NCBI GenBank assembly: GCA_046563655.1 | Contig: CM102287.1 | Coordinates: forward strand, 10,168,001-10,232,000 | Length of the DNA: 64,000 nt | Direction of reading: 5' to 3' | From: Yuukianura sp. NJ FZ-2021 | Lineage: Eukaryota | In this document: positions 22,557-48,356 of the stretch, piece by piece | Position numbering within the stretch: position 1 is the first letter of the stretch | Layout of the letters: each line of letters begins with the position of its first letter | Notes under the pieces: generated by a model | The model's input: the letters and a program-made list of their open reading frames with translations, nothing else | Told to the model about the DNA's origin: nothing | Databases searched by the model: none | Program-made: the position numbers and the translations under genes

Positions 22557-25318
22557 TTAGAAATTGGAAGTTTTCTTTTGAGGATTTTTGGATTTAGTTT
22601 TCGCTTTTCTTGTGAGATCGATTTCGTTCCAAAATTTAAGTTCCTGTTCAAACGGATTTTGAAGTGTAGAGTAAGTCTCGTTTTGGCCAAAGATGAGCAG
22701 ATGAGGCAGTGGACGCCAGAGGGTGTGACCTTTGACCTCAAGGTCATTGACCTCGGATGACCTCTTGACCTCTACGGCGGGGTCACCAGTTGAAATGAAG
22801 TTTGTTAGCAGTTGAACCATGTTTTCACTTAAGTCGATTTCCGTTGTTTGAGACTTTGTAAAACCGGGGTAGTAGCGACTAACATTGAAAATGTAGAATT
22901 GATCCTCCGTGTGCCCCACTCCTAAATTTTTTTAAACTTTGAAAATTTAAAAAAAAGTTTTGAAATTTTGGAAATTTTACCCCACTCATCCGCTCTGATT
23001 CCGATTGTATTTACCAAGTTATCTTTTCCTTGAAAATCAAAAACGTAGGAATAAGTAGGTGCCAATGAAGCATGCGCAATTGTGGCTTCGTGGATTCCTT
23101 GGATGAAGAATCGCAGAGTTAAGGCCTAGAAAGGTCAAAGGTCAAAGTTCAAATGTCAAAGGTCAATGACCTTTTGAAGAAAAACTTATGCTAACCTTGG
23201 CTACTGCAGCATTTGATTGTTTAGCACCAAAACCCGAATTTTTGAAATAAAATTTTGAAATTTTCTTTTGAATTTGTTCCTTGTTTGGATAGGATTCGTA
23301 GTTGAGGAGATTCGGGGCTCTCGTCCACCACTCCCTTCTCAGCTGCGGAATTTTCAACGTCATGTAGAACACTGCAAATTTTTCAAAATTTAACTTCTTT
23401 TTTTCCCCCGAAATTTCAAATTTTGAAAATTTGAATTCGTACATTGCAGAATAAAGTAGCCTTCCTGTTTTGTACACGACGTGATCCACGGGATTTTTGC
23501 AACATCTTTTCGCTTGTACATTTCGCGAGGCGTCGCGGTCAAAAAAGCGTTTGACCCCGCTGATTCCACCACTGGCCCAAAAAGTATCAACGGAGTCGGT
23601 CCAAAATCCTACTTTACAAAATTTTGAAACCCCATTTTCGAAATTTTGAAAAAAAAATTTTGTCAAATAAAATTTCTAGTCCTCACGAGAAGATACTTTT
23701 GGTTGCTGACGAGAAAGTTTGGATTCCGATTTCTGAAACATTTTAAAATTGCTTCTGAATTGTTTCTGTTTGGATCCATTGGTTGACAGCGCACTCTCTT
23801 GGCCAGTCGGTAGGTCAAGGTCATTGACCTTTCTCTACTGGATACTGCCCAGTAGTTGAATGCTGTTCCACTGAATGACATTGCCCTGTGAAAGAGACTG
23901 CGTGACCTTGACATCATGTGGAGATGGGTACTTGACCCGCCTGCACTGTGACCCCCCAAGGTCACCTTCAAGGGGTCACCCCCAAAAGCTCCGATGTTGT
24001 CCCGCACCCATTGCAGAGCTAAAACTTGATCTTTCAGTCCATTGTTCCCAGGGACAACGCTGTCTCCAGTACTGAGGAACCCTGGAAATAGTGTCAACCG
24101 CAAAATGATCAACAGGAGAGTGGTCAAAATTTCAAAATTTCCTCAAATTTTTTACAAAATATGAAAATTTTTCAAAAATTTTCAGAATTGTACCCAGTAC
24201 ACCAAGTCTGTAGTTGAAATTGACTAGAATTAGGTCTTGGTTGAGCAAGTAGCTTGGGCCATAGTCTGCTCCACTCCCAAACAGAAACGACCCGCCATGG
24301 ATGAAAACAAAAACAGGAAAGGAAGAATTCTTAGGAAAAATCTAAAAAATATTTTCCAAAAAATGAGATTTTTTTCAATTTGATCTTCAAAATTTTAAAG
24401 AGTTTACTCTTTTTGGAGCGTAGACGTTAAGAGTGAGACAGTCTTCTGATCCAATTGTTGTGTACAGAAGTCCCACGTCCAATTGGAGACACGGCGATCC
24501 AGGACTTTTGGCCAATCGCGTTCCAGTCCAAGCAGATTTCGGAACTGGAGGCTAAAATAGTTGAAAGTAGTAGTTTTAACACCTCAGTTCAATTTTTACA
24601 ACTCAATGAAAATCAATCACGTTTTGAAAATTAAAGAAAAAAAATTGAAATTCTAACTAAGATCGACGCCACATAAAAAATAAATTTTTTGGGATACGGA
24701 AGTTTACATGGACTGAAATAAATTGAGAGGAGGAATGTGATTGGTCCAGAAAAAAAGCATTAGGCGAGATAGGGAACGAGATAAGAAAAATACACAAGGA
24801 AAAACACACTTTTCAGTTTTCACATGAGAATTCTCATATCTCAAGAAATGAAAAGTTCAACTAGCGTTTTAATTAAACAAAACTTTTTCAACTACATCTT
24901 TAAAATTCACGTTATTACTCTTCTAATATTCTAAAAATTTTGAAATTCTAAAAATTCCAACAATTTTTTGATGAAAAATATTTTTGAATAATTTACCAAA
25001 ACATTTGCAAAAATTTTGGGAATTGCGAGAAAGGAATTTACTAAAAGTAGTTTTTACCTGAAATTGATTTTGGCCAATTGGTGGCTCAGCGTATGGAATT
25101 CCCTCGAAGGCTTCAATAGCTGCCCCACCGGAACTGATCATGTAGTAACCCTCAACGGCCCCACCGTGGGAAAGTATTGCTCTTGGTGGTGGCTCAGCTT
25201 CCAAAATTTGCCCCACCAAATTCACTCCTTCTCCAAGTATTTCTGGTTGTGGGTACTTTGGCCAGCACCAAGTGCCCATGGCACACAACAAGTAAGTCAA
25301 GTATGCTCCCACGAACAT
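22557..25318 (-). CDS. Secreted carboxyl/cholinesterase, multi-exon
   Basis: Signal peptide, [42 protein letters not shown], catalytic GHSAGG, acid residue in KQEG, His in GHTED. Confidence 0.92.
24579..24960 (+). repeat. ~400-bp dispersed repeat in carboxylesterase intron 1; second copy at 57541-57955
   Basis: Collinear match, including gaatgtgattggtccagaaaaaaagcatt.ggcgagatagggaacgagataagaaaaatacaca. Confidence 0.85.
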
Positions 25319-26613
25319 CACAAATTTTGAAGTTTGAAATTCAAAATTTTGGTTTTCTAAAATTTTGAAAAAGTCGCACAGTTTAGAATTCCATTGGCTT
25401 TAGCCACGTTTTCACAGACGACGCTGCTGGATTTGGTTTAATTGCATCACAAACATAAGTTGCGCAACAACTGATAAAATTCCTTGAGAAATTTGTTGTT
25501 TTGCAGCAATAAAATTGCATACTGCTGCTTTTTTTCTTAATGTTGTGTACACAGATGTGTTTAGTTGCTGTTGTAGTAATAAACCTGTTTGAAATCACGT
25601 GAGATTGTGTTAATCAAGTAATTAGTTACGAGGGCACACGGTGGAAGCAGGTTTTACTAACCTTGCTCCATTCAAAAAGCAACTTCCTTCGACTTTTGTT
25701 TTAAATGTTAAGGAAAACTACATTTTGAATTTGAAATCTAATTAGGGAAAGTCAATTTCTAAAACTAATCTGATTTTAAATTAATCTCAAAACTCGCATT
25801 TTCATAATAAAAAACTTAAAAAATGCGAAAGATTTTTATTGCATCAAGGAAGACAATGGAAAATTAATTTTTCAAGGCCATCAGAATTTAATTTTCACAC
25901 AAGAAACAACGTTAATCAAAAAGCAAACAAGAATTGCTAACTTTTTTGTTCAACAAGGTCTGAACAAGGCTTAAGTTCATTTAAAAAAAAATGAAAATTT
26001 ACGTCAAAACGAAACTGGGAGTGAGTGAAATCTTACATAAGAGTGAGTGTAATTAAAAAGTTAAGGTTAGTGTTTGTGGTGAGTGAAAGTAAAGAAGTTG
26101 TGAGAGAGAAAGTTTGAGTTTGGTGGGAAGTGTGAAAGTAGGTGTTAATTGAAAAGCGAACTTCCATGATCCACTCCCGCAGAGTTAATTGAATTACTTT
26201 CACTTCCCAAAGCCATCAACAAACACTTTCCATCTTGCAACTTCACTTTCACTTTTAACGTATTGTACTGACTGTATTCAAAAATAAGTTTCTAAGTTGG
26301 TAAGTTTCATGATTATTATATAAATAAATCAAAATAAGTGTATAATAATTTTATATAAGTACATATAATTTTTTAAACGCTTTTTCTGTTGCCGTGGGAA
26401 TGTCGATTCCAAATTCAGTTTGTTTTTGTGCTCGTTTTCTTTGTTTGTTTAGTCTGTTTGTTTAGTCACCTGACCAAAACTGTTCCAGTTCCATACAAGC
26501 ACACACTCCGCATTATTCCCTTGCGGATTTATATTTGGTTTTGATAATTTTTACTTCGATTAATTGAAACCAGGATCAATCAGTGCACAATCAATTGAAA
26601 AGCCAATTGAGCA

Positions 26614-29455: not shown

Positions 29456-29594
29456 TGACGTCACCAGCTGAAAAATACCGTAATCGTGAAATTGGAACCC
29501 GTTGGCATTTATGTAAACAAGATGTGTCTTACGGGTTTCTATAGGACACCACCAATAATTGGCAGAATTCCGGTATTTTCAGCGGGTGACGTCA
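29456..29594. repeat. Inverted repeat in the filler DNA at the duplication junction
   Basis: tgacgtcaccagctgaaaaataccg ... cggtattttcagcgggtgacgtca. Confidence 0.6.
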
Positions 29595-29658
29595 TTTTTT
29601 TTTCTACATGGCAACTTAGTATTTTACTCACCTTGGAATTTACTAAAGTAATTTTTAC

Positions 29659-29919
29659 CTGAAATTGATTTTTGCCGATTGGTGGCTCAGCGTATGGAAT
29701 TCCCCCGACGGCTTCAATAGCTGCCCCACCGGAACTGATCATGTAGTAACCCTCAACGGCCCCACCGTGGGAAAGCACTGCTCTTGGTGGTAGCTCCGCT
29801 TCCAAAATTTGCCCCACCAAATCCACTCCGTCTCCACGTATTTCTGGTTGTGGGTACTTCGGCCAACAGCAATTGCCCATGGCACACAACAAGTAAGTCA
29901 AGTATGCTCCCACGAACAT
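29659..29919 (-). pseudogene. Orphan duplicate of carboxylesterase exon 1, with its donor site and ~110 bp upstream
   Basis: 261-nt copy of 25058-25318 (FEGIPY changed to VGGIPY); no downstream esterase exons follow. Confidence 0.88.
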
Positions 29920-30360
29920 CTTAAATTTTGAAGTTTGAAATTCAAAATTTTGGTTTTTTAAAATTTTGAAAAAGTCACACAGTTTAGAATTTCATTGGCT
30001 TTAGCCACGTTTTCACAGACGACGCTGCTCCAGATCCAGATCTCCAAGAATTTCTGGATGTGGGTACTTCGGCTAACACCAATACAATACGTATTTAATT
30101 TTATATACGCATATACTATAATTTCTAAAAAAGAAAAACTCCTTTTCTGTTGCCGTGGGAACGTCGATACCAAATTCAATTTGTTTTTGTGCTCTTTTTC
30201 TTCGTCAAGTGACCTGATCAAAACTTTTCCAGTTTCACAGAAGCACATTTTGCACGATCGGCGATCCCTTGTGGATTTCTTTTTGGTTTCATAATTTTTC
30301 GATTAATCGAAGCTACATTCAATCAGTCGTTCCACAATCAATTGAAAAGTTAATTGAACA

Positions 30361-34143: not shown

Positions 34144-36736
34144 TCAGAAATACATTTGTGGCGAATCGGGACAAAGCTCTATGCTCAACTTACGCAACTC
34201 TTCCTCCAACTTTTGGAAATTCTTCACTTGAATTACCCGGTCTTGTCTTCCTAAAGTCATTTCTAGAAGGTTTTCCTCTTCAATAAGCTGGCCAATTCCC
34301 ACGGCAAAGACTTCGATTCCCTGTTCACGTGCCACTTGTGGTTCATTTTCCAACGGATCCGAGGGATCGCCATCCGTTATGAAGACCATCACTTGTGGAA
34401 CCCCCTCTCGTCTCTTGCTGGCCATTTCATAGATGGCAGCACTCATTGCCTTACCTGTTTGCGTGTCGTGGTGCAGATGAGGCGTTGCTCTGATGACTGC
34501 AGAAACCTCAGCGGGGGTTAAGTAGGTATCGAGTTCTATGCCTATCATGACGTCACCGCTGTAGTAGAGGTACGCTATTCTGCTGTTGTCTACAAAGGCT
34601 GACGCCAACTTGTCAACAAAGTCCAGTGCCACAGGAAAGTCGTATTTGCTGATGCTCTCAGAAACATCCAACACAATTCCGAGATCACTAACGTTGTAAC
34701 ATTTCTTCGGTGGTGGTGGAGTTGTGGTGGGCTGTTCGGTGGTCGTTGTGGGGGGAGTACGTCTGGTGGGCGGAGTTGGAGTTCTGGTGGGCCATGTAGG
34801 TTCAGTTGGGGTATATCCAGGGGACGTGGTTCCTCCAGGGGACGTAGTTCCTCCGGGGGGCGTAGTTGGAATGCCGCTGGGGGGCGTAGTTGGAATGCCG
34901 CTAGGGGGAGTAGTTGGAATGCCGCTGGGGGGCGTAGTTGGGATGCCGCTGGGGGGCGTAGTTGGAATGCCGCTGGGGGGCGTAGTTGGGATGCCGCTGG
35001 GGGGCGTAGTTGGGATGCCGCTGGGGGGCGTAGTTCCTCCGTAGGGCGTAGTTCCTCGGGGGGCGTAGTTGGGATCCCGCTAGGGGGAGTAGTTGGAATG
35101 CCGCTGGGGGGCGTAGTTGGAATGCCGCTGGGGGGAGTAGTTGGAATGCCGCTGGGGGGCGTAGTTGGAATGCCGCTAGGGGGAGTAGTTGGAATGCCGC
35201 TGGGGGGCGTAGTTGGAATGCCGCTAGGGTGATGTAGTTCCTCCGTAAGGCGTAGTTCCTCTGGGGGGCGTAGTTCCAGGGGAAGTAGTTCCTCCGGGGG
35301 GCGTAGTTCCTCCAAGGGGCGTAGTTCTTCCGTAGGGCGTAGTTCCTCCGGGGGGCGTAGTTGGAGTGTCTTTGGGTGGCCTTGTGGTCGGGCCTGTTCC
35401 GGGAGGCGGTGTTGGGGTCGGGTCTGTTCGGCGGGGCCCTTCGGTCGTAGTAGAGTTGGGATATGGATCGGGCGGTGGTGGGATACAGTATTTTGGCAAG
35501 TCTATTAGGAAATCCACAAGATGCTCTACGAATTCGACAATACTTTTGCGACAGGACGTGCATTCATCGCCTATAGGTGTAGGGCATGTATCACCGACTG
35601 GATCTTGTTGCCTGGGTTCCGGATAAGTTGCGATGTTTCGATATTTTCGGATATCCTGGAGTTTCGGTACCTCTAGAGTTTTGTCTACCTTAAATACCCA
35701 CACTCCGTTTTGACCCACGTTGCTGGATCCTGCCAATTCTCTAGCCCGATGGGTACATGAGGCGGGACTAACAAGTTGAATTTCCCCTTTGTGAATTTTG
35801 TCTCCAGCGTAGAATCCAGCAGTTGCCGAGCCAAACGCCGGCTGGCTGCAGTTGCCATCGAAATCCATTCCAGAAATCCAGTCGAGCGTTTCTGTAACAC
35901 AAAAGATTCAAAGTTGTCTTTTTGTTTGTCTATTAGTGCTTTAATTTTTTTTTTGGAAATAGTTCTAACCATAGTAAATGATGACATATGAGCCAGTGTC
36001 GTCTCTAGTTAGGATCGTCTGGAACGTGTTCCTGCAGTACGTGTCATATGCATTGTGTCCTCTGGCAGGTACATCCAGCCACGTTGCGACAAAAACCCAA
36101 CGCACGTTGTGGGGCTTAGACCGCGGAAACGCTACTTGAAGTTGTCTGTTGGCTTTTTCCAGATTCTTGACATCGGCATTGACGGAGTGTGAAATTAGCC
36201 CTCCCATTTGTGGGTTAACTTCTGACCAAAAAGGCGCGATAAACATTGACCCATCAACTCGTCCTTGAAGATCGTTGCAACCAAAAATGAAGTAATCGAT
36301 TCCTGTACAAAAAAACAAGTGTTATCAACTTTTCTGTATAAAGTAAATAGCTGTATGTATAATGTATAATATACAATGTGTGTAAACATATTTATGTATT
36401 AATGTAATTAGAAGTATGTATATGTATAATGTACAATATACAATGTGTGTAAACAAATTTATGTTTAATGTAATAGCTTCATGTATAATTTAAGAACAAC
36501 TTAAGTTCAGAATTAGCATAAGAATTACCTTCAAGGAATGAAAGAATGCCATTGTCGCCGACAAAGATGCGGTTGAACGTGTTTCCAAAAAACTTGAAGT
36601 TTGGTAGGCGCGTGCCGACATACGCTTCATCTTTGCTCAAAACTTTGTCCGTCCCAATCTCAAAGAAATGGGACCGATCAATTCCAAGCGTACTTTTGGT
36701 AAAGATCAGAATTGGCAACAACGTTAAGAAATACAT
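34144..36736 (-). CDS. V1: signal-NIDO-Cys/helix-PT repeat-vWA protein; as assembled, broken by two compensating 1-nt indels in the repeat
   Basis: MYFLTLLPILIFTKSTLG; NIDO motifs FIAPFWSEV, VFVATW, NTFQTIL, SNVGQNGVWVFKVD; vWA DVSES..T..TDG; in-frame TAG at 35224. Confidence 0.75.
34820..35365 (-). repeat. Coding minisatellite: 24-bp (TTPPSGIP) and 18-bp (GGTTPP) units
   Basis: About 14 copies of gccgct(g/a)ggggg(c/a)gtagttgg(a/g)at, plus 18-bp units. Confidence 0.92.
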
Positions 36737-38653
36737 TGTAGCCACCTGGAGTTGTGCTCAAGAAGAAGTGCAAAAATGTACTAACAGCAACAGAGCTACT
36801 ATACTACAATTTCGAAAATTCCGAAAGTAGGTTTTATTTGATTTCCTGGCTATTGTTATGATTCCGGGTCATAGTTGCTGTACCAAGAGAAACCGATCCA
36901 GCCGATCCAACTGGTTGGAATTAGAATGGCCGATTCGAGCATAGACTGTAAGCAGAAAGGCCAAACCTTCTTACAAGCAAAATAAAAAAAGCAATAGTTT
37001 AATGCAAATTCAATTAATAATTATTTTAAATCAAATTCCAGCTGAAAATCGCAAGCTAAAACACGTTGATGTAACCGAAAATAAACTAACGTAAATTTAA
37101 AATAATCCAAGCCAAACTGATGTAAAACGATGAAACCCATGTTACGATGAAAAGAAAATCTGTTTTCGGCATATTTCGGATCGGTCCCAAGGATCGGCCG
37201 CATCCTTCCGAACTATGTTTTTTTAATTGTTACTTCAGCCTCATTCTATTTAGGCTATGACCCAGCTTCCTGGTATTATACGACAATTTCTCCATTGTAT
37301 ACACTTTGAATAGGCCATAAAAATATTAGAAACTCAAAAAACTTCCAAATCCACAATGGGGAAATTTCTGGACAAAATCATAAAAACTTATTAGAAAGTT
37401 AGCATTTATTAGACGATGACACGTCATGCACAGCTAGAAAATGTATGGTTTCCGAAAAATTTTGTCATGCGGATGAAATAGGGGTATGATCATGGATGTT
37501 CGTTTCTCACTTCCCAAAAAAAAATCAAACTTTCTCTCGGCAACCTCCTTTTGCTTTCACTCAGAGCAGACGCTAACCTTGTTAAAAAAAACTTTCAATT
37601 ACAATCATTGCAAATTTGTTTCTCCAACATTTCTTGGCGCCTCGTGAGTAACGCGAAAATGTTGCCACGAATGTTAGGATTATGGTTTGGTGGGTTTCCG
37701 TTTCATTGGGGCGTTCATGTGAAATTCAAAAATATCACTTGAAGTTGAGATTACATGATTTTTTCACTTTTTCAAGAATTTCAAGAAACACGAATGTTTC
37801 ACTTTTTCAAGAATTTCAAACAACTCTGAAATTTTTTTTTTCCAAAGCTACTTACTGCCACCTGGGCATTCCACCAAAATGTTTCCACGAATGGTGGGAT
37901 CACGTTTGGGTGGGTTTCATTGGGGCGTTCATTGGAGAAATTCAAAAATAGAGCCACTTGAAGTTAAGAAAAGCGAATTTTCTCACATTTGAAATCCAAC
38001 TTTGGAAATACTTTTTTTTTTTTTCGAAACCATCCATTTTTTTACTCTGGTTTTTGGTTTATCGTTTTTAATAGTAAAGGGTTAACTTTCTAAAATTCAA
38101 ATATTTTATGATTTTGTTCAAAAATTTCTCCATTGTATTTTTAAAATTTTGGTTGAGTTTCTAATATCCTTATGGCCTATTCAAATTGTTTACGACTATT
38201 CTCGAAAGTTACCATAGTTCGATCCGAATAGCCCCGATCCGAAGTACGCCGATCCTAGGGTATTTTTAGAGTAACAAGGGTTTAATTGTTTCACATTAGT
38301 TTATTATAGTTAGATTATTTAAAACTTGCTTAGCTTATGTTCGGTTAGATACGTGTTTTACCTGTGGAATTTTAGCTGGAATTTGATTAAAAATAATTAT
38401 TAATTGAATTTGCATGGAACTACCAGGTCACTTGTTTGACATAAAATTTAGTCACAATTGTAAGCGGCCACAGTTGAAATGCCTGCCATTTTGATTTGCT
38501 CGAGTTGGATCGGTTTTTACATTCAGCGACTATGACTTGGAATAGACAACAACCCTGAAATCCAATAAAACTACTGGCGGGATTTACTTCAACTTTCTTT
38601 TGTTATTAGTACATTGCTACACCTCTTCTTGCGCACAACTCCAACTGGCTACA

Positions 38654-40706
38654 ATGTATTTGTTAACATTGTTGCCAATTCTGATCTTTACTAAAAGTAC
38701 ATTTGGGATTGACCGGTCCCAATTCTTTGAGGGTGGGACGGAAGCAGTTTTGAGCAAAGATGAGGCATATGTCGGCACGCGCCTACCAAACTTCAAGTTT
38801 TTTGGAAACACGTTCAACCGCATCTTTGTCGGCGATAATGGCATTCTTTCTTTCCTCGAAGGTAATTCTTACACTAATTCTGAACCTGGGTTGATCTCGC
38901 ATTATTTTTTATAAAACCTATTACATTAGATTGATGGATAATATTATACATAATATAATATAATGCATAATATAATATTATATTTACACGTGATTCATAA
39001 ATGTGTTTACATATATTGTACATTATACATATTTCAATTTACATTATACATAAATGTTGATAACACTTCTTTCTTTTTACAGGAATCGATTACTTCATTT
39101 CTGGCTGCTTCGATATCCAGGGAAATGTTGATGGGTCAATGTTCATCGCTCCATTTTGGTCCGAAGTTAACCCAGAAATGGGCGGGCTAATTTCTTACTC
39201 CGTCAATGTTGATGTCAAGAGTCTCGAAAAAGCCAACTCTCAACTACAAGCAGCGTTTCCGAGCTCTACTCCCCACAATATGCATTGGGTATTTGTGGCA
39301 ACATGGCTGGATGTTCATCCCCGGGGACACAATGCAAGTAACACACACTGCAGAAACACGTTTCAGACGATCCTAACCAGCGACGGAACGCGCTCTTATG
39401 TCATCTTCTACTACGGTTACAATTATTTCACAAAAAAATTAAATAAATAAATACTAATAGACAAATATAAAGACAACTTTAATTTTGTGTTTTAGAAACT
39501 CTCAACTGGATTACTGGGAAGAACTTCGATGGAATCTGCAGCGCGGAGGCACATGGCTCAGCAACTGCTGGGTTCTACGCTGGACACAAAATTCACCAAG
39601 GCGAAATTCAACTAATTAGTCCTGCCTCATGTACCCTCGAAGTTAGAGAATTGGCATCATCCAGCAACGTGGGTCAAAACGGGGTTTGGGTATTTAAGGT
39701 AGACAAAGCTCTAGAGGTACCGAAACTCCAGAATGCTCGGAAACCTCGACAGATTAACCCATATGCTGCTCAAGAATTTCCTAAAGAATGCCCTAAGGCT
39801 AAAGATAATCTTTGTAAATCAACTACTCCTTGTCGCGCAAAAATTGTCGAGCTTGTAGAGTATCTTGTAAAGTTCATACGAGACTTCCCATCCAAATGTT
39901 TGAATAAAGAGCCCGGGACGGGGAACCCACCTCAGGAACCCACCGATCCCCCTGGGTACCCACCAGAACCCACCGACCCGCCTGGGTACTCACCTCCAGA
40001 ACCCAGCTCTTCTCCGAGATACCCTGAAGATCCTTACCCAACTGAACCCCCGTGGCCGGAATACCCTGAACCCACTCACCCCCCAACGAGACCACCTCCA
40101 CCCCCCACTCCGCCCCCCACCCCACCCCCACCACCACCCACTGAGGCGCCAAACGTCGCAGTGGAATGTCCCAAAACCAATGACATTGGAATTCTGGTCG
40201 AAGGCTGTAAAATGACTGGTAGCAACAATTATCAGCTGGCATTGGCATTCATTGACAAGTTGGTAGCAGCCTTTGTTCAAACTAGCAGAATTCAGTTGTA
40301 CTACTTCTGCCAACAAGCTCTGGTACAAGTACGAATTGACAACACTTTTAATCCAGGAAAGATTTCTGATCTTATCAAAAGAACCCCGTTTCTAAACACC
40401 CAAGTCCAAGTGCAAACTCCACAAGCAATCCTTATAGCAGGAGAGAACATGCGCAAAAAGAAACGCCCTGGCGTGCCACAGAAACTGATCGTTCTAGCAG
40501 GAAACAACCCCTCTGTTGCATTCCATACTTCACCAAAAGCAGTTCGTAACATGGGAGTAGATCTGTATGCTGTGGGAATAGGGAATGGCATTAGTTATAA
40601 CCAACTTCTAGAAATGGCATTGCAGGAAGACAGGGTCATTACAGTTGGAAGTTATAACGAATTGGACCAACTTTTGAATAAGGTCAGCAAAACGACTTGT
40701 AATTGA
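38654..40706 (+). CDS. V2: signal-NIDO-Cys/helix-Pro-rich-vWA protein with degenerate MIDAS, 3 exons
   Basis: Exons ~38654-38861, 39083-39415, 39496-40706; vWA reads ILVEGCKM and VLAGNNP. Confidence 0.88.
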
Positions 40707-41409
40707 TATGTTTTGGTGAAATTTTGTGATTTCCTCGTATGTAGAATCTTATTTGAAACAATCTGAAGAAATAAAATCATGAAAACATTTGGATTATTTT
40801 ACAAACTTATTAAGTAGCGAAAGCTGCTTCATGCATCCACCTTGTCCGTCTGTCTGTCTGGACGGCAGTTGGCGGCAATAATAATAAAACTTTTTAGTTC
40901 TGAATTTTGGAAATATTTTAGTTTGCATAATATTTGCTACAGGAATTCATGAATTTCACGCATTTGGGATTCACGAATTCCAAAATTGCAATGGCTTTAG
41001 CTAGATTTTCACAGAAAATGCTGCTGGATTGGATTTAAGTTACATCAATAAAAAAGTTGCGCTACACTTTATAACATTCCTTCAAAAAAAATTGTTTTCC
41101 AGTTTATTTTGTACGAAAATTTTTCAAACCATCTTATTTTGGTGTTCTGGTTTACGTTTATCGTATTGTCACATTGTAACAAGCAAACGTGGGTCATGAG
41201 TCATGATCTTTCACATAGAATTAGAATTCATGACTTAAAAGTAATAATTAAATATACGATTGGATCTGTTTTTTACTTGGAATCAACAATAACCCGGAAA
41301 TGCAATAAACTTAATTGCGGCATTTTCTTGGAATTTAGGAATGGGATTTTGCTGTCTCTCAGTACATTTGTCAACCTTCCTGTTGCGAACAACTCCAAGC
41401 TGCTACAAA

Positions 41410-42360
41410 ATGTATTTCCTTACGTTGTTACCAATTCTGATCTTTACTAAAAGTGCATTTGGAACTGACCAGTATTTAGCCAGTCACCCAGATGTACAGA
41501 AACTCGGGAATATTCGGAATCGTCGAAGCAGCGAAGGCGCAGAGTCGTGCGCCAAAGTCATGGATGTCGGAATTCTGGTCGAAGGCTCTCCAAACATCGG
41601 CGCCAACAATTATCAGCTCGCACTGGGATTTATTGACAAGTTGGTGGCAGCCTTCGTTCCAACGAGCAGAGTAGAGTTGGTTTACTTCAGTCAACAGGTA
41701 TGGAGGGATATTAGTACCAAAACGAATTAAACTTTTCCCGCCAATTAAAGTTTCTCCAATTAACTTTTCGCCAATTTAGAACACGCCAATTAAAATTAAC
41801 TTTAAATAACTTGGCGAAAGATGTTTTTATATGGAGAAACTTAAATTGGCGGGAAAAGTTTAATTAGTTTTGCAACTAATATCCCTCCATAATTTTTTCT
41901 TAGAAATGATTTATTTATTCGTCGATAAATCTCCATATATTGCTAATAAATATCCCTTCATAAACAGGCCCTCATACAAATTCCAATTGACAACACTTAC
42001 ACTCCGGCTCAGATTTCTGATCGGATCAAGAAAACGCCGTTTCTTAACCAACCCCAAATCCAAACTCCACAAGCAATCCTTATAGCAGGAGACAAATTGC
42101 AGAAAAGCAAACGAGCTGGAATTCCACAGAAACTGATCGTTTTGGCCGGAAACAACCCGTCTGTTGCATTCAACACTTCACCAAGAGCAGTACGTGAGAA
42201 GATGGGAGTGGAAGTCTATGCTGTTGGAGTGGGAAGTAGCATTAGTCGTGACCAACTTTCAGCTTTAACGTTGCAGCAAGAAGATCGGATCATTACGGTC
42301 CCAAGTTATAACGACTTAGACCAAGTGCTGAACCAGGTCAGCAAAATGATTTGTGTTTGA
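41410..42360 (+). CDS. V3: signal-propeptide-vWA-only protein with degenerate MIDAS, 2 exons
   Basis: Exon 41410-41697 (96 codons) plus 41968-42360 joins as YFSQQ|ALIQIPIDNTY, collinear with V2. Confidence 0.85.
41699..41962. mobile_element. Non-autonomous TIR element (TAT...ATA ends, 6-bp TSD; IS3EU-like) forming the V3 intron
   Basis: TSD aacagg at 41693-41698 and 41963-41968; ~60-bp inverted repeat 41699-41758 / 41832-41891; second TIR copy ending at 41962. Confidence 0.8.
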
Positions 42361-42926
42361 ACTGTTCTCGAACCAAATTTTTTGATTTCCTTGTATACAG
42401 AAACCAATTGAAACAATCGAAATAAATAAAATTGTGGAAAAGTTTGGGTTATATTTTACAAAATTATTTTACAACACAGTTCATGAAATACTTCTGAAAT
42501 TCCTAATTAAAGTTAGAAAGAAGATTTCAGAAGTTTCAGGTACCTAAGAAATAAAGTGAATAAAATGGAAACAGCGAAACTACGATTGGTAAAGAAACAA
42601 AAACAGCTAGAAATCTTGATTTTTGAAGGCATTGTGTTTGTACAATTCGGTTTTTTAGTTTTTTCTTTCTTTTTCAAAACTTATAAAATTTTCAAAAAAT
42701 CATCCATCTGGTTTGCTTTTCATCGTGTTTAGAAAGTGATAATTTTTTAATGTTCGGATTTTATATAGTTTGGTCCGGCAATTTCTCCATTGTTTTGGAA
42801 TTTTTTTTTGGATCGCCTCAAATCCAATAAACTTATTGCTTGCAGTAGTTTTATTCGTAAAATAGCTGTTTGTTGCTATTGGTCCACTGCTACACTTCTT
42901 GTTGCCCAAAACTCCAAGTGGCTACA

Positions 42927-43883
42927 ATGTATTTCTTCACGTTGTTGCCAATTCTTTTGCTCACGAAAACTACATTTGGAATTGACCAGTATGAAGATAC
43001 TTACCCAGATTTACGGAAACTCGGGGATATTCGAAAACCTAGACAGATCGACGTTCCATATACCGATCCAGAATTTCCCGCCGATGGGCAATGCCCGAAG
43101 CCTAAAGATGACCACTGCGGGTCAACTACACTCTGTCGCAAAAATATCGTCGACCTGGTAGAGCATCTTGTCAATTTCATACGAGACTTCCCCACGAAAT
43201 GTTTGAAAAACCCCCCCGGAGATTCATCCCCACCCACCGAACCCCCAACGGACCCCGAGAACCCTGAAACTGAACCCCCAACATGGACTCAAGACCCCCC
43301 TAATTCTCCGCCCCCCTCAACCACTCATGCGCCAGACGTCGCAGTGCCATGTCCTGAAGTCAGCGATTTCGGAATTATGCTGGATTCATCTGGCAGCATC
43401 GGCAAGAAAAATTATAATTTAGCACTGGAATTTGTTGACAAACTGGTGGCAGCATTTGTTGGAAGGAGCAGAATAATGATGATTTACTATTCCAATCGAG
43501 TCGTACTGTACATTCCACTTGCCAATACTTACACTCCAGCTGAGATTTCTGGACTCATCAAACGAACTCCCTACCTCAACCAAGGAACTCACACGAGCAG
43601 GGGATTTCTGAAAGCAATTCAGGAAATGAAGGCTAACAAAAGAGCGGGGATTACACAGCGTTTGGTAATTTTAACAGATGGAGTGCCCGCTTCTCCACTC
43701 ACATTCGAACCAAAACGAGCACGAGACGCGGGAATTCAAGTATTTGCGGTGGGAATCGGCAAAGACATTAACGAGCGCAATCTTGTACAAATGACGTTGC
43801 GAAAAGACCGCGTCATGACGGTCCAACGTTATGATCAGCTAAAGCAAAAATTAAATGAGATCAGCAAAATGATGTGTCTTTGA
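42927..43883 (+). CDS. V4: signal-propeptide-Cys/helix-PT-vWA protein with no NIDO, single coding exon
   Basis: MYFFTLLPILLLTKTTFGIDQ...IRKPRQ...CPKPKDDHCGSTTLCRKNIVDLVEHLVNFIRDFPTKC...DSSGS..T..TDG. Confidence 0.9.
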   Translation: MYFFTLLPILLLTKTTFGIDQYEDTYPDLRKLGDIRKPRQIDVPYTDPEFPADGQCPKPKDDHCGSTTLCRKNIVDLVEHLVNFIRDFPTKCLKNPPGDSSPPTEPPTDPENPETEPPTWTQDPPNSPPPSTTHAPDVAVPCPEVSDFGIMLDSSGSIGKKNYNLALEFVDKLVAAFVGRSRIMMIYYSNRVVLYIPLANTYTPAEISGLIKRTPYLNQGTHTSRGFLKAIQEMKANKRAGITQRLVILTDGVPASPLTFEPKRARDAGIQVFAVGIGKDINERNLVQMTLRKDRVMTVQRYDQLKQKLNEISKMMCL

Positions 43884-45889: not shown

Positions 45890-46406
45890 GTCATAACCTA
45901 AATGGAATGAGGCTGAAGTAAGAATTAAAAAAACATAGTTAGGGAGGATGCGGCCGATCATTCTGTCCCGATCCGAAATATAGCGAACCAAGGGTATTTT
46001 TTATCTTAACATGAGTTGCATGATTTTACATTAGTTTGGGTTAGATTAATTCAAATTTGCTTAGTTTACGTTCGGTTACAGCATACAACGTGTTCTAGCT
46101 TAAGAATTTTAGCTAAAATTTGATTGAAAATAATTATTAATTGAATTTGCATGCAACTATTCCGTCTTTTGTTTTACATAAAAGGCCGATCTTGGCACGC
46201 GCCACGTTGGAATCGGCAATTCCCTTTGGCACAAGTTGGATCGGCTAGATCGGTTTTTTCGCACATGAACTATGACTTGGAATAGACAATAACCAGGAAA
46301 TCAATAAAAACTATTTTCGGTATTTACTACAATGCAGTACAATAGCTGAGTGTTGCTGTTAGTACGTTTTTGCACTTCTTCTTGAGCACAACTCCAAGTG
46401 GCTACA

Positions 46407-48356
46407 ATGTATTTGTTAACATTGTTGCCAATTCTGATCTTTACTAAAAGTACGCTTGGAATTGATCGGTCCCATTTCTTTGAGGTTGGGAAAGACACAA
46501 TTTTGAGCAAAGATGAGGCGTATGTCGGCACGCACCTTCCAAACTTCAAGTTTTTTGGCAACACGTTCAACCGCATCTTTGTCGGCGATAATGGCATTCT
46601 TTCATTCCTTGAAGGTAATTCTTATGCTAGTTCTAAACCCAAATTCTTACATTATATCTACATGTACATAAATCTATTGTCATTATACATAACTATATTT
46701 ACAGTAGACATTGTACATGAATGTTGCTAATACTCCTTTTTTTACAGGAATCGATTACTTCATCTCTAGTTGTTTCGATATCCAGGGAAGTGTTGATGGG
46801 TCAATGCTTATCGCCCCATTTTGGTCTGAAGTTAATCCAGAATTGGGTGGGCTAATTTCTTACTCCGTCAATTCTGATGTCAAGAATCTGGAGAAAGTCA
46901 ACAAACAACTGCAAGCAGGGTTTCCGAGATCTAAGCCCCACAACATGCATTGGGTATTTGTGGCAACATGGCTGGATGTTCATCCCAGAGGACACAATGC
47001 AAGCAACACACACTGCAGAAACACATTTCAGACGATCCTAACTAGCGACGGAACACGCTCTTATGTCATCTTCTACTACGGTTAGAATTATTTCACAAAA
47101 AATTAAATAATTTTTTTTAAAGGTAAATAAATTTATTTGTTATAAAATTATTATTAAATAATTAATATTAATATAAATTATTAAAATAAATTAATATTAA
47201 TATTAGTATAAAATATTTTTAAATAAATAATAATAGACAAATATAAAGACACCTTGAATTTTGTGTTTTAGAAACTCTCAACTGGATTTCTGGGAAGAAC
47301 TTCGATGGCAACTGCAGCGAGGAGGCTCATGGCTCGGCAACTGCTGGATTCTACGCTGGACACAAAATTCACCAAGGCGAAATTCAACTTATTAGTCCTG
47401 CTTCATGTACCCGGGAAGTTAGAGAATTGGCAACATCCAGCAACGTTGGTCAAAACGGGGTTTGGGTATTTAAGGTAGACAAAACTCTAGAGGTACCGAA
47501 ACTGCATGATATTCGGAAACCTCGACAAATCGAATACTCTGATCCGAAATTTCCCGCTGATGGTACATGCCCTAAGCCTAAAAATGACTTGTGTGGGTCA
47601 ACTACTCCCTGTCGTAAAAATATCGTCGATCTGGTAGAGTATTTTGTCAATTTCCTAAAAGACTTCCCAACTAAATGCTTGGGTAAACAGCCCGGTACGG
47701 GGAACCCACCTAAGGAACCCACTGACCCGCCTGGGTACCCACCTCCAGAACGCACCTCTTCCCCCAGATACCCGGACGATCCTGACCCAATCACGCTGCC
47801 GCCAGACGTCCCTAAGAAATGTGACCAAGTCAATGACATCGGAATTCTGTTAGACTCTTCTGGTAGTATCGGTGACGAATCGTATAAGTTGGCACTGGCA
47901 TTTGTTGACAAATTGGCATCAGCTTTTGTTGAGAAAAGCAGAATCATGATGATTTACTACGGAACTGCTGTGAGATTTCAATTGGAACTTGATAACAAAT
48001 GGAATGCAGCTGAGATTTCTGAAGTCATCCAAACAACTCCTTACCTGAGCGAAGACACGTACACTGGAAAAGCAATTGAAGTGGCAACAGAGCACATGAA
48101 GAAGAGGAAACGAGATGGAGTTTCACAAAACCTTGTGATTTTAACTGACGGTGATCCGACTGTTCCTCTTGCTTATGCACCAATAGATGCAAAAGAAGCG
48201 GGAATTTCAATCTTTGCAGTGGGAATAGGTAAACAGATCAAAATGCAAAACCTCATGAGTATGACTTTGCAAGCAGACAGGGTTACTACGGTCCAAAGTT
48301 ATGAAGAATTGGACCAAAAGTTAAGAGATGTCAGCCGAATGATTTGTACTGTGTGA
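46407..48356 (+). CDS. V5: signal-NIDO-Cys/helix-Pro-rich-vWA protein with intact MIDAS, 3 exons
   Basis: Same NIDO exons as V1/V2; IRKPRQ; DSSGS..T..TDG; ends SRMICTV*. Confidence 0.9.

Follow-up and report, generated by a model that had tools for sequence, protein, structure and literature searches.

We regard it as almost certain that a transposon, accompanied by a 6-bp target-site duplication (TSD), inserted into a formerly continuous exon, the vWA-coding sequence of the gene V3. The insert lies between a GT and an AG whose joining would restore the reading frame exactly. We lean towards the reading that V3 is a working gene in which at least some transcripts undergo exact splicing, the insert having become an intron only recently; use of the two sites by the spliceosome and expression of V3 are what we infer from the DNA.

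V3 and its uninterrupted paralogs

Pfam and tblastn searches of the window (the whole 64-kb stretch of DNA that was analysed) revealed a secreted NIDO/vWA protein family, represented by five tandem paralogs between positions 34171 and 48356. Their positions and those of the two V3 exons are given below.

About 34171-36793, minus strand: V1
38597-40706, plus strand: V2
41350-42360, plus strand: V3
42861-43883, plus strand: V4
46341-48356, plus strand: V5
41410..41697, plus strand: V3 exon 1, with the ATG at 41410, a signal-peptide-like N-terminus, a short linker and the first ~47 positions of the vWA profile
41968..42360, plus strand: V3 exon 2, with the remaining vWA domain and the stop codon at 42358-42360

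The frame of exon 1 is open and matched V2 and V4 in tblastn, its residues 52-95 corresponding to positions 1-47 of the Pfam VWA profile, and exon 2 corresponds to profile positions 53-173 (E 7.9e-09). Alignment of the five proteins indicated that the position of the V3 stop is conserved among the paralogs, and the 3' end of the gene is likewise paralog-like, with AATAAA retained. The sequence-only reading had placed a stop of the unspliced frame at 41730 between two exons that both remain open. The list of open reading frames matched this, since one frame runs from 41293 to the stop at 41730 and the frame reopens downstream of the insert (ORF 41950..42360).

V3 and V4 have no NIDO exons, and V3 also lacks the Cys/Pro-rich linker and is thus shortened relative to V2 and V5. 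V2 and V3 are 67% identical, and the protein alignment showed that the metal-site residues of the vWA domain (DxSxS, T, D) have all been lost in both. Word searches retrieved no homologous or annotated protein for V3, and within the near length range they retrieved no protein relative of V3 exon 2 or of V4 at E <= 0.001.

Several further features of the window were observed in and around the array. The exact 20-nt motif CTATGACTTGGAATAGACAA, for which no occurrence is expected by chance, was found at 38530-38549 ahead of V2 and at 46270-46289 ahead of V5, in each case about 125 nt before the start codon, and a diverged copy lies upstream of V3 at about 41270-41313; the motif may be a shared promoter element. 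The linker of V1 (34144-35079, minus strand) contains at least seven PPSGIPTT repeats, a mucin-like proline/threonine run that the other paralogs lack and over which overlapping frames are open too. Two near-identical exon-like ORFs (24923-25399 and 29539-29991, minus strand) stand beside carboxylesterase-domain ORFs, one ORF at 23663-24142 matches Pfam COesterase, and the pair looks like a second local gene duplication.

At the point homologous to the V3 interruption, V1, V2, V4 and V5 are single open frames; the ORFs and the alignments agree on this, as had been proposed from the sequence. Alignment of the nucleotide sequences revealed that the V3 exon ends abut without a gap when compared with V2, V4 and V5, the junction reading ...TCAACAG|GCCCTC in V3 and ...CCAACAA GCTCTG in V2, so that the earlier claim of an exact return to a paralog-like frame (QQ|AL) by the GT/AG register was borne out. 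Because four paralogs are uninterrupted here, the interruption of V3 is derived and not ancestral.

The insert, its family and its age

The insert and the signals associated with it are composed of the following features.

41693..41698, plus strand: left TSD, AACAGG, whose final G is the G of the donor GT
41698..41967, plus strand: proposed 270-nt GT-AG intron, made of the insert in full, preceded by the final base of the left TSD and followed by bases 1-5 of the right TSD
41699..41891, no strand assigned: core palindromic MITE of 193 bp, the multicopy family unit
41739..41793, plus strand: sub-terminal 15-nt spaced repeats, CGCCAATTAAAGTTT-like, three copies, mirrored in the right arm
41892..41948, plus strand: tail of the insert, outside the multicopy family, with depth at the single-copy level
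41893..41903, plus strand: competing acceptor-like site TTTTTTCTTAG, just behind the inner right end
41943..41947, plus strand: CTAAT, branch-point-like, its A at 41946 lying 21 nt before the acceptor G
41949..41962, plus strand: outer right end, matching the family end at 13/14 positions and abutting the TSD
41963..41968, plus strand: right TSD, AACAGG, in which the acceptor AG (41966-67) is followed by the base that opens exon 2

The insert comprises 264 bp (41699-41962), starts with TATGGAGGGATATT, ends with AATATCCCTTCATA and thus has TA..TA ends; it contains no long ORF, only short stop-to-stop frames. Its 14-nt terminal arms are complementary at 13/14 positions (93%), and the two AACAGG copies are exact and directly abut it on both sides. 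The description of a TIR element within a 6-bp aacagg duplication was therefore correct to the base in letters and coordinates, and the donor GT, built from the G of the left TSD and the T of the element, and the acceptor in the right TSD were read as described at 41698-99 and 41966-67. A TA duplication of the Tc1/mariner kind was considered and rejected; it leaves the flanking AACAGG unexplained and makes the gene before insertion 8 nt too long relative to the paralogs.

With up to two mismatches, the terminal 14-mer occurred three times in the 64-kb window, all three within the insert, where 0.26 occurrences are expected by chance; this number was reached in 0/100 shuffles. The three are the left end, an inner right end confirmed at 41878-41891 and the outer right end, the element reading TATGG...(C/T)CATA to either of the two right ends. 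Other copies of the insert were absent from the window in a blastn search with word size 7, the best other match being 27 nt long (E 0.046).

The inner end delimits a hairpin whose 65-nt arms, 41699-41763 and 41827-41891, are 91% complementary and whose RNA fold reaches -103.8 kcal/mol (z -12.8 against shuffles). A comparison of the hairpin (41710-41880) with Rfam gave 12 matches, all far below the gathering thresholds (best 50.6 bits against 83), and we read these sub-threshold matches to plant MITE-type miRNA precursors as a reflection of the generic long-hairpin shape only.

Contigs were compared with the locus from three runs (X1-X3) of one sample, S1 (organism A), and from one further run (X5) of a differently labelled organism B from a separate study. 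The summed contig depth on the MITE, which does not equal copy number, exceeded that of the flanks by a factor of 50-90 in X1 and of about 100-180 in X5. The values for individual bins were as follows.

Exon flanks: about 240 in X1, 3.8 in X5
Arm bin 41737-41773: 12,680 in X1, 366 in X5
Arm bin 41848-41884: 21,078 in X1, 685 in X5
Tail bin 41922-41958: 226.5 in X1, no cover in X5

Contigs covering the right arm diverge directly behind 41891 (four in X1, five in X3 and five in X5), and the sequences that follow are unrelated and mutually different, with a consensus agreement of 0.49-0.56. Among the pieces listed, at least five (5/31) start at 41698/9 and stop at 41762/3. Since both depth and contig boundaries change at these points, the family unit is taken to be a 193-bp MITE that begins at 41699 and terminates at 41891. 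This core is multicopy in organism A and in organism B, and its properties are those of a MITE: it is short and non-coding, has inverted terminal repeats and occurs in many copies with the same ends. Summed read depth peaks on the sub-terminal repeats (41739-41793, mirrored at 41797-41861) rather than at the outermost ends or in the loop. The 15-nt repeats may be common to a wider group of elements and are possible transposase-binding sites.

The 71 bp behind the core (41892-41962, the outer right end included) have single-copy depth and are special to the V3 locus. The second right end at 41891 that the sequence-only reading had pointed to is thus present, but it is the usual end of the family, and the end at 41962 is the unusual one. 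The insert stands as a real transposon but not as a simple copy of its family. Because the TSD abuts the outer end, the transposed unit would be a composite of MITE and tail. Alternatively, the tail may have been added at the junction of element and TSD by aberrant repair.

Insertions at this site were also found in other sequences. A 664-nt contig of organism B is continuous from 41293 to 41905, across the left junction, with 40 differences and 14 gap positions; cover from this organism is absent at 41922-42032, and the shared insertion is read there from the left junction only. A variant contig from sample S1, 600 nt long, covers 41439-42038, the entire insert included; it shows 24 differences and is free of gaps. 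Since the insert is present in both, it predates these lineages. Contigs joining 41697 to 41968, as expected of an empty site, did not occur among the contigs listed for the four runs, which show presence and not absence. Sample S1 (X1-X3) contains at least three versions of the V3 locus, about 4-8% apart and with small indels in the tail (41899, 41928), and the insert is present in every version seen. Such variation suggests high heterozygosity, pooling of animals or duplicates of very recent origin. A metagenome scan with the 18-nt element end returned eight loci, all of them chance matches of ~17-25 nt at the query word, and one further weak match of 40 nt at 80%, and a distant search of a phage collection gave no match.

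Complete IS3EU families are described as always having TA..TA termini and usually a 6-bp TSD (PMC10045372). GingerRoot elements, reported from several aquatic animals, have a 6-bp TSD, mostly TA...TA termini and TIRs of 100-150 bp (PMC6839031). Polinton likewise makes 6-bp TSDs (PMC10045372, PMC6839031), and the TSD of Ginger2 is given as 6 bp (PMC6839031) or as 4 or 5 bp (PMC10045372); the termini of these two differ from TA..TA, being AG..TC and TG..CA, respectively (PMC6839031). The V3 insert shares with IS3EU and GingerRoot the TA..TA termini, the long TIRs and the 6-bp TSD, the last read exactly at this one copy. It differs from GingerRoot in the length of its TIRs (65 nt against 100-150 nt) and from both in being known without a transposase, no transposase domain being found in the 11 long ORFs scanned in the window. 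The IS3EU signature named in the sequence-only reading accordingly fits the published criteria in TSD length and termini, with the TSD known from a single copy, and "IS3EU-like" is a fair label rather than a statement of membership.

Two other origins of the interruption were weighed against transposition into a continuous exon. Introns are frequent sites of transposons, and the element might have landed within an older V3 intron at the same position; however, the two TSD copies lie exactly on the exon edges, and removal of the element with one AACAGG leaves zero intron bases, so that there was no earlier intron. The four paralogs, including V2 as the closest, are also intronless here, and we regard this origin as extremely improbable. 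Repair of a break with filler DNA and a short direct repeat, a route reportedly proposed for new introns of Daphnia, agrees with the short direct repeats that flank the insert and with the 71-bp tail, which as non-family sequence could be filler. Yet both copies of the repeat abut genuine element termini with 13/14 matching inverted ends, and the left terminus is also the boundary of other genomic copies, which makes break repair very unlikely.

Splice signals and constraint on V3

The proposed course of events would begin with the entry of a non-autonomous DNA transposon into the vWA-coding exon of V3 and the duplication of the 6 bp AACAGG, the transposed unit being the 193-bp hairpin MITE with its 71-bp single-copy tail and second right end. 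Since the target ended in AGG and the element begins with T, the left junction reads CAG|GTATGG and the right junction ...AACAG|G. U2-type splicing between the new sites would then remove the element together with one duplicate and restore the codons QQ|AL.

The frequency of such a fit was determined by counting every register in which an element with T...A ends and one TSD can be removed exactly between GT and AG. In the coding sequences of V2-V5, exact removal is permitted at 97/3940 (2.5%) of the 6-bp target positions, and AACAGG qualifies through the NNNAGG register.

Ten introns of the window served for comparison, four from SF3A1 (by alignment to database proteins) and two each from V1, V2 and V5. 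The V3 donor, CAG|GTATGG, falls within the range of the ten local donors (GTAAGT, GTAGGA, GTAATT, GTTACA, GTTAGA). In all ten local acceptors YAG is immediately preceded by a T-rich run, and the proposed acceptor AACAG|G within the TSD is weaker: CCCTTCATAAACAG has purines at -4 to -8, with ATAAA standing between a 7-nt pyrimidine run and the CAG. The site TTTTTTCTTAG, ending at 41903, is closer to the local acceptors than the proposed one, and its use would leave 64 nt of insert in a frame-shifted message that stops immediately. CTAAT at 41943..41947 may act as the branch point, judged by its likeness to the general consensus. The donor sits in the stem of the very stable MITE hairpin, and this burial could hinder its recognition. 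The description "precisely spliceable" thus holds in principle, for the register is exact, but it is weakened by the poor acceptor and by the better-looking competitor at 41903; judged by these signals, exact splicing of the insert is possible and not assured.

Differences among haplotypes were compared over 40 of 100 rows, in which the pieces covering exon 2 are not physically linked to the insert. The cluster at 42093-42115 and records 23 and 29 (17-18 differences in ~130 nt) were set aside as V2 sequence placed on V3, and so was one row in the signal-peptide region that is common to all paralogs; record 23 was taken as V2 because its spacing of 586 nt is that expected between the V2 end and 41293. 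Gene conversion by V2 was rejected as a source of the variant letters, which match V2 at some positions only and form no simple conversion tract.

Among the differences listed, those in the vWA domain comprise seven synonymous changes and three conservative replacements (L>V, V>I, S>G); if a share of 0.23 to 0.30 of neutral changes is taken to be synonymous, the one-sided binomial p is 0.002 to 0.011. In exon 2 considered by itself, the ratio of synonymous to replacement changes is 5:3 (p 0.019 to 0.058). In the linker (41455-41535), seven replacements were listed against two synonymous differences, and this part of V3 looks unconstrained. The dN/dS of the vWA domain was 0.345 between V2 and V3 and 0.34 between V4 and V5, and lineage-specific residue changes in V3 and V2 numbered 10 and 15 with V4 as the outgroup, 12 and 8 with V5, and 10 and 12 with V1, although both of these tests mainly reflect the time before the insertion. 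V3 thus has no excess of residue change over V2 and no sign of decay in this comparison.

V3 may instead be a dying or dead duplicate whose exon was disrupted, whose GT/AG register is coincidental and whose message is absent, unspliced or mis-spliced at 41903; we hold this to be a serious possibility, though short of probable. The truncation of V3 relative to V2 and V5, the missing metal-site residues, the weak acceptor with its better competitor, the replacement excess in the linker (7:2) and the empty word search for a homologous or annotated protein all speak for decay. The loss of the metal site is, however, common to V2 and therefore predates the insert, V3 residues evolve no faster than those of V2, and the listed vWA differences stand at seven synonymous to three replacement. 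Coincidence would also have to supply a register expected at only 2.5% of target positions. Moreover, both V3 exons are open in the window even though the insertion is not brand new, being shared with organism B and with diverged haplotypes. Removal of the insert as an intron is the better reading because of the 1-in-40 register, the frames still open although the insertion is shared and has diverged, and the excess of synonymous changes in the vWA domain.

Relation to known cases of intron gain

Insertions of maize Ds/dSpm and of C. elegans Tc1 in exons are spliced from mutant messages, usually imprecisely and by way of cryptic sites. The V3 insert resembles them in that an exon insertion would be tolerated through splice sites in or beside the element; unlike them, it lies in a register that allows exact restoration.

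A closer likeness is found in the Introners. In these elements the TSD supplies, depending on the family, the 5' site, the 3' site or portions of the two, and their splicing mostly leaves the message length unchanged (PMC9860276); the same scheme is presented in the review PMC11282704. The sequence-only reading had called co-option of the TSD a known Introner route to intron gain, and both sources describe it as such. In Micromonas, Aureococcus, Symbiodinium, Florenciella and others (Gozashti et al. 2022, PMC9860276), as at V3, a short non-autonomous TIR element lies in a coding exon, and in the accounts of PMC9860276 and PMC11282704 the splice site or sites are built partly from the TSD and removal keeps the length of the message. 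At V3, too, the splice sites come from the element end and the TSD, and removal is exact and in register. The V3 case differs in being one copy, known from DNA alone, and in being a composite with a non-family tail. Since the mechanism has already been described for Introners, V3 is a possible further case of the Introner route and not a new mechanism.

Among animals, the 2022 survey of 3,325 genomes reported Introners in only two groups (PMC9860276), and a follow-up of 2025 added validated cases from a sea urchin and a tunicate. "IS3EU" has 0 occurrences in the main text of that follow-up, whose family classifications stand in the supplements, and judged by titles and abstract openings none of the literature found on springtail intron gain is about Introners. 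The MITE-derived introns of Fritillaria borealis (PMC11282704) are alike in their animal host, in the hairpin TIR elements within genes and in the TSD-like repeats at the junctions; their ends are non-canonical and need a changed spliceosome, whereas the V3 insert is canonical GT-AG.

The SF3A1 gene of the window has its closest named matches in two springtails, and the host is therefore probably an arthropod of this kind. A wider proposal would make the hairpin MITE family an active Introner, of the IS3EU/GingerRoot type, in a springtail-like terrestrial arthropod, with V3 as one of many introns in two related species; on the present sequences this seems unlikely. Under such a proposal, because the two MITE ends share 17 identical nt whichever way the element is read, NNNAGG insertions either way would give splice signals, each insertion yielding a G|TATGG donor, CTAAT with a pyrimidine stretch and an AG acceptor carried by the TSD.

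If the 41697/41968 junction is absent from RNA, V3 would represent an ordinary exon disruption in a decaying duplicate. Clean, datable intron gains are rare in animals, and if the junction is real in RNA, the V3 locus would display every step of the route from transposon to intron: the target site is known, the TSD is intact, the uninterrupted paralogs represent the "before" state and a second organism shares the insertion. It would also tie the little-studied IS3EU/GingerRoot-type elements to intron gain.
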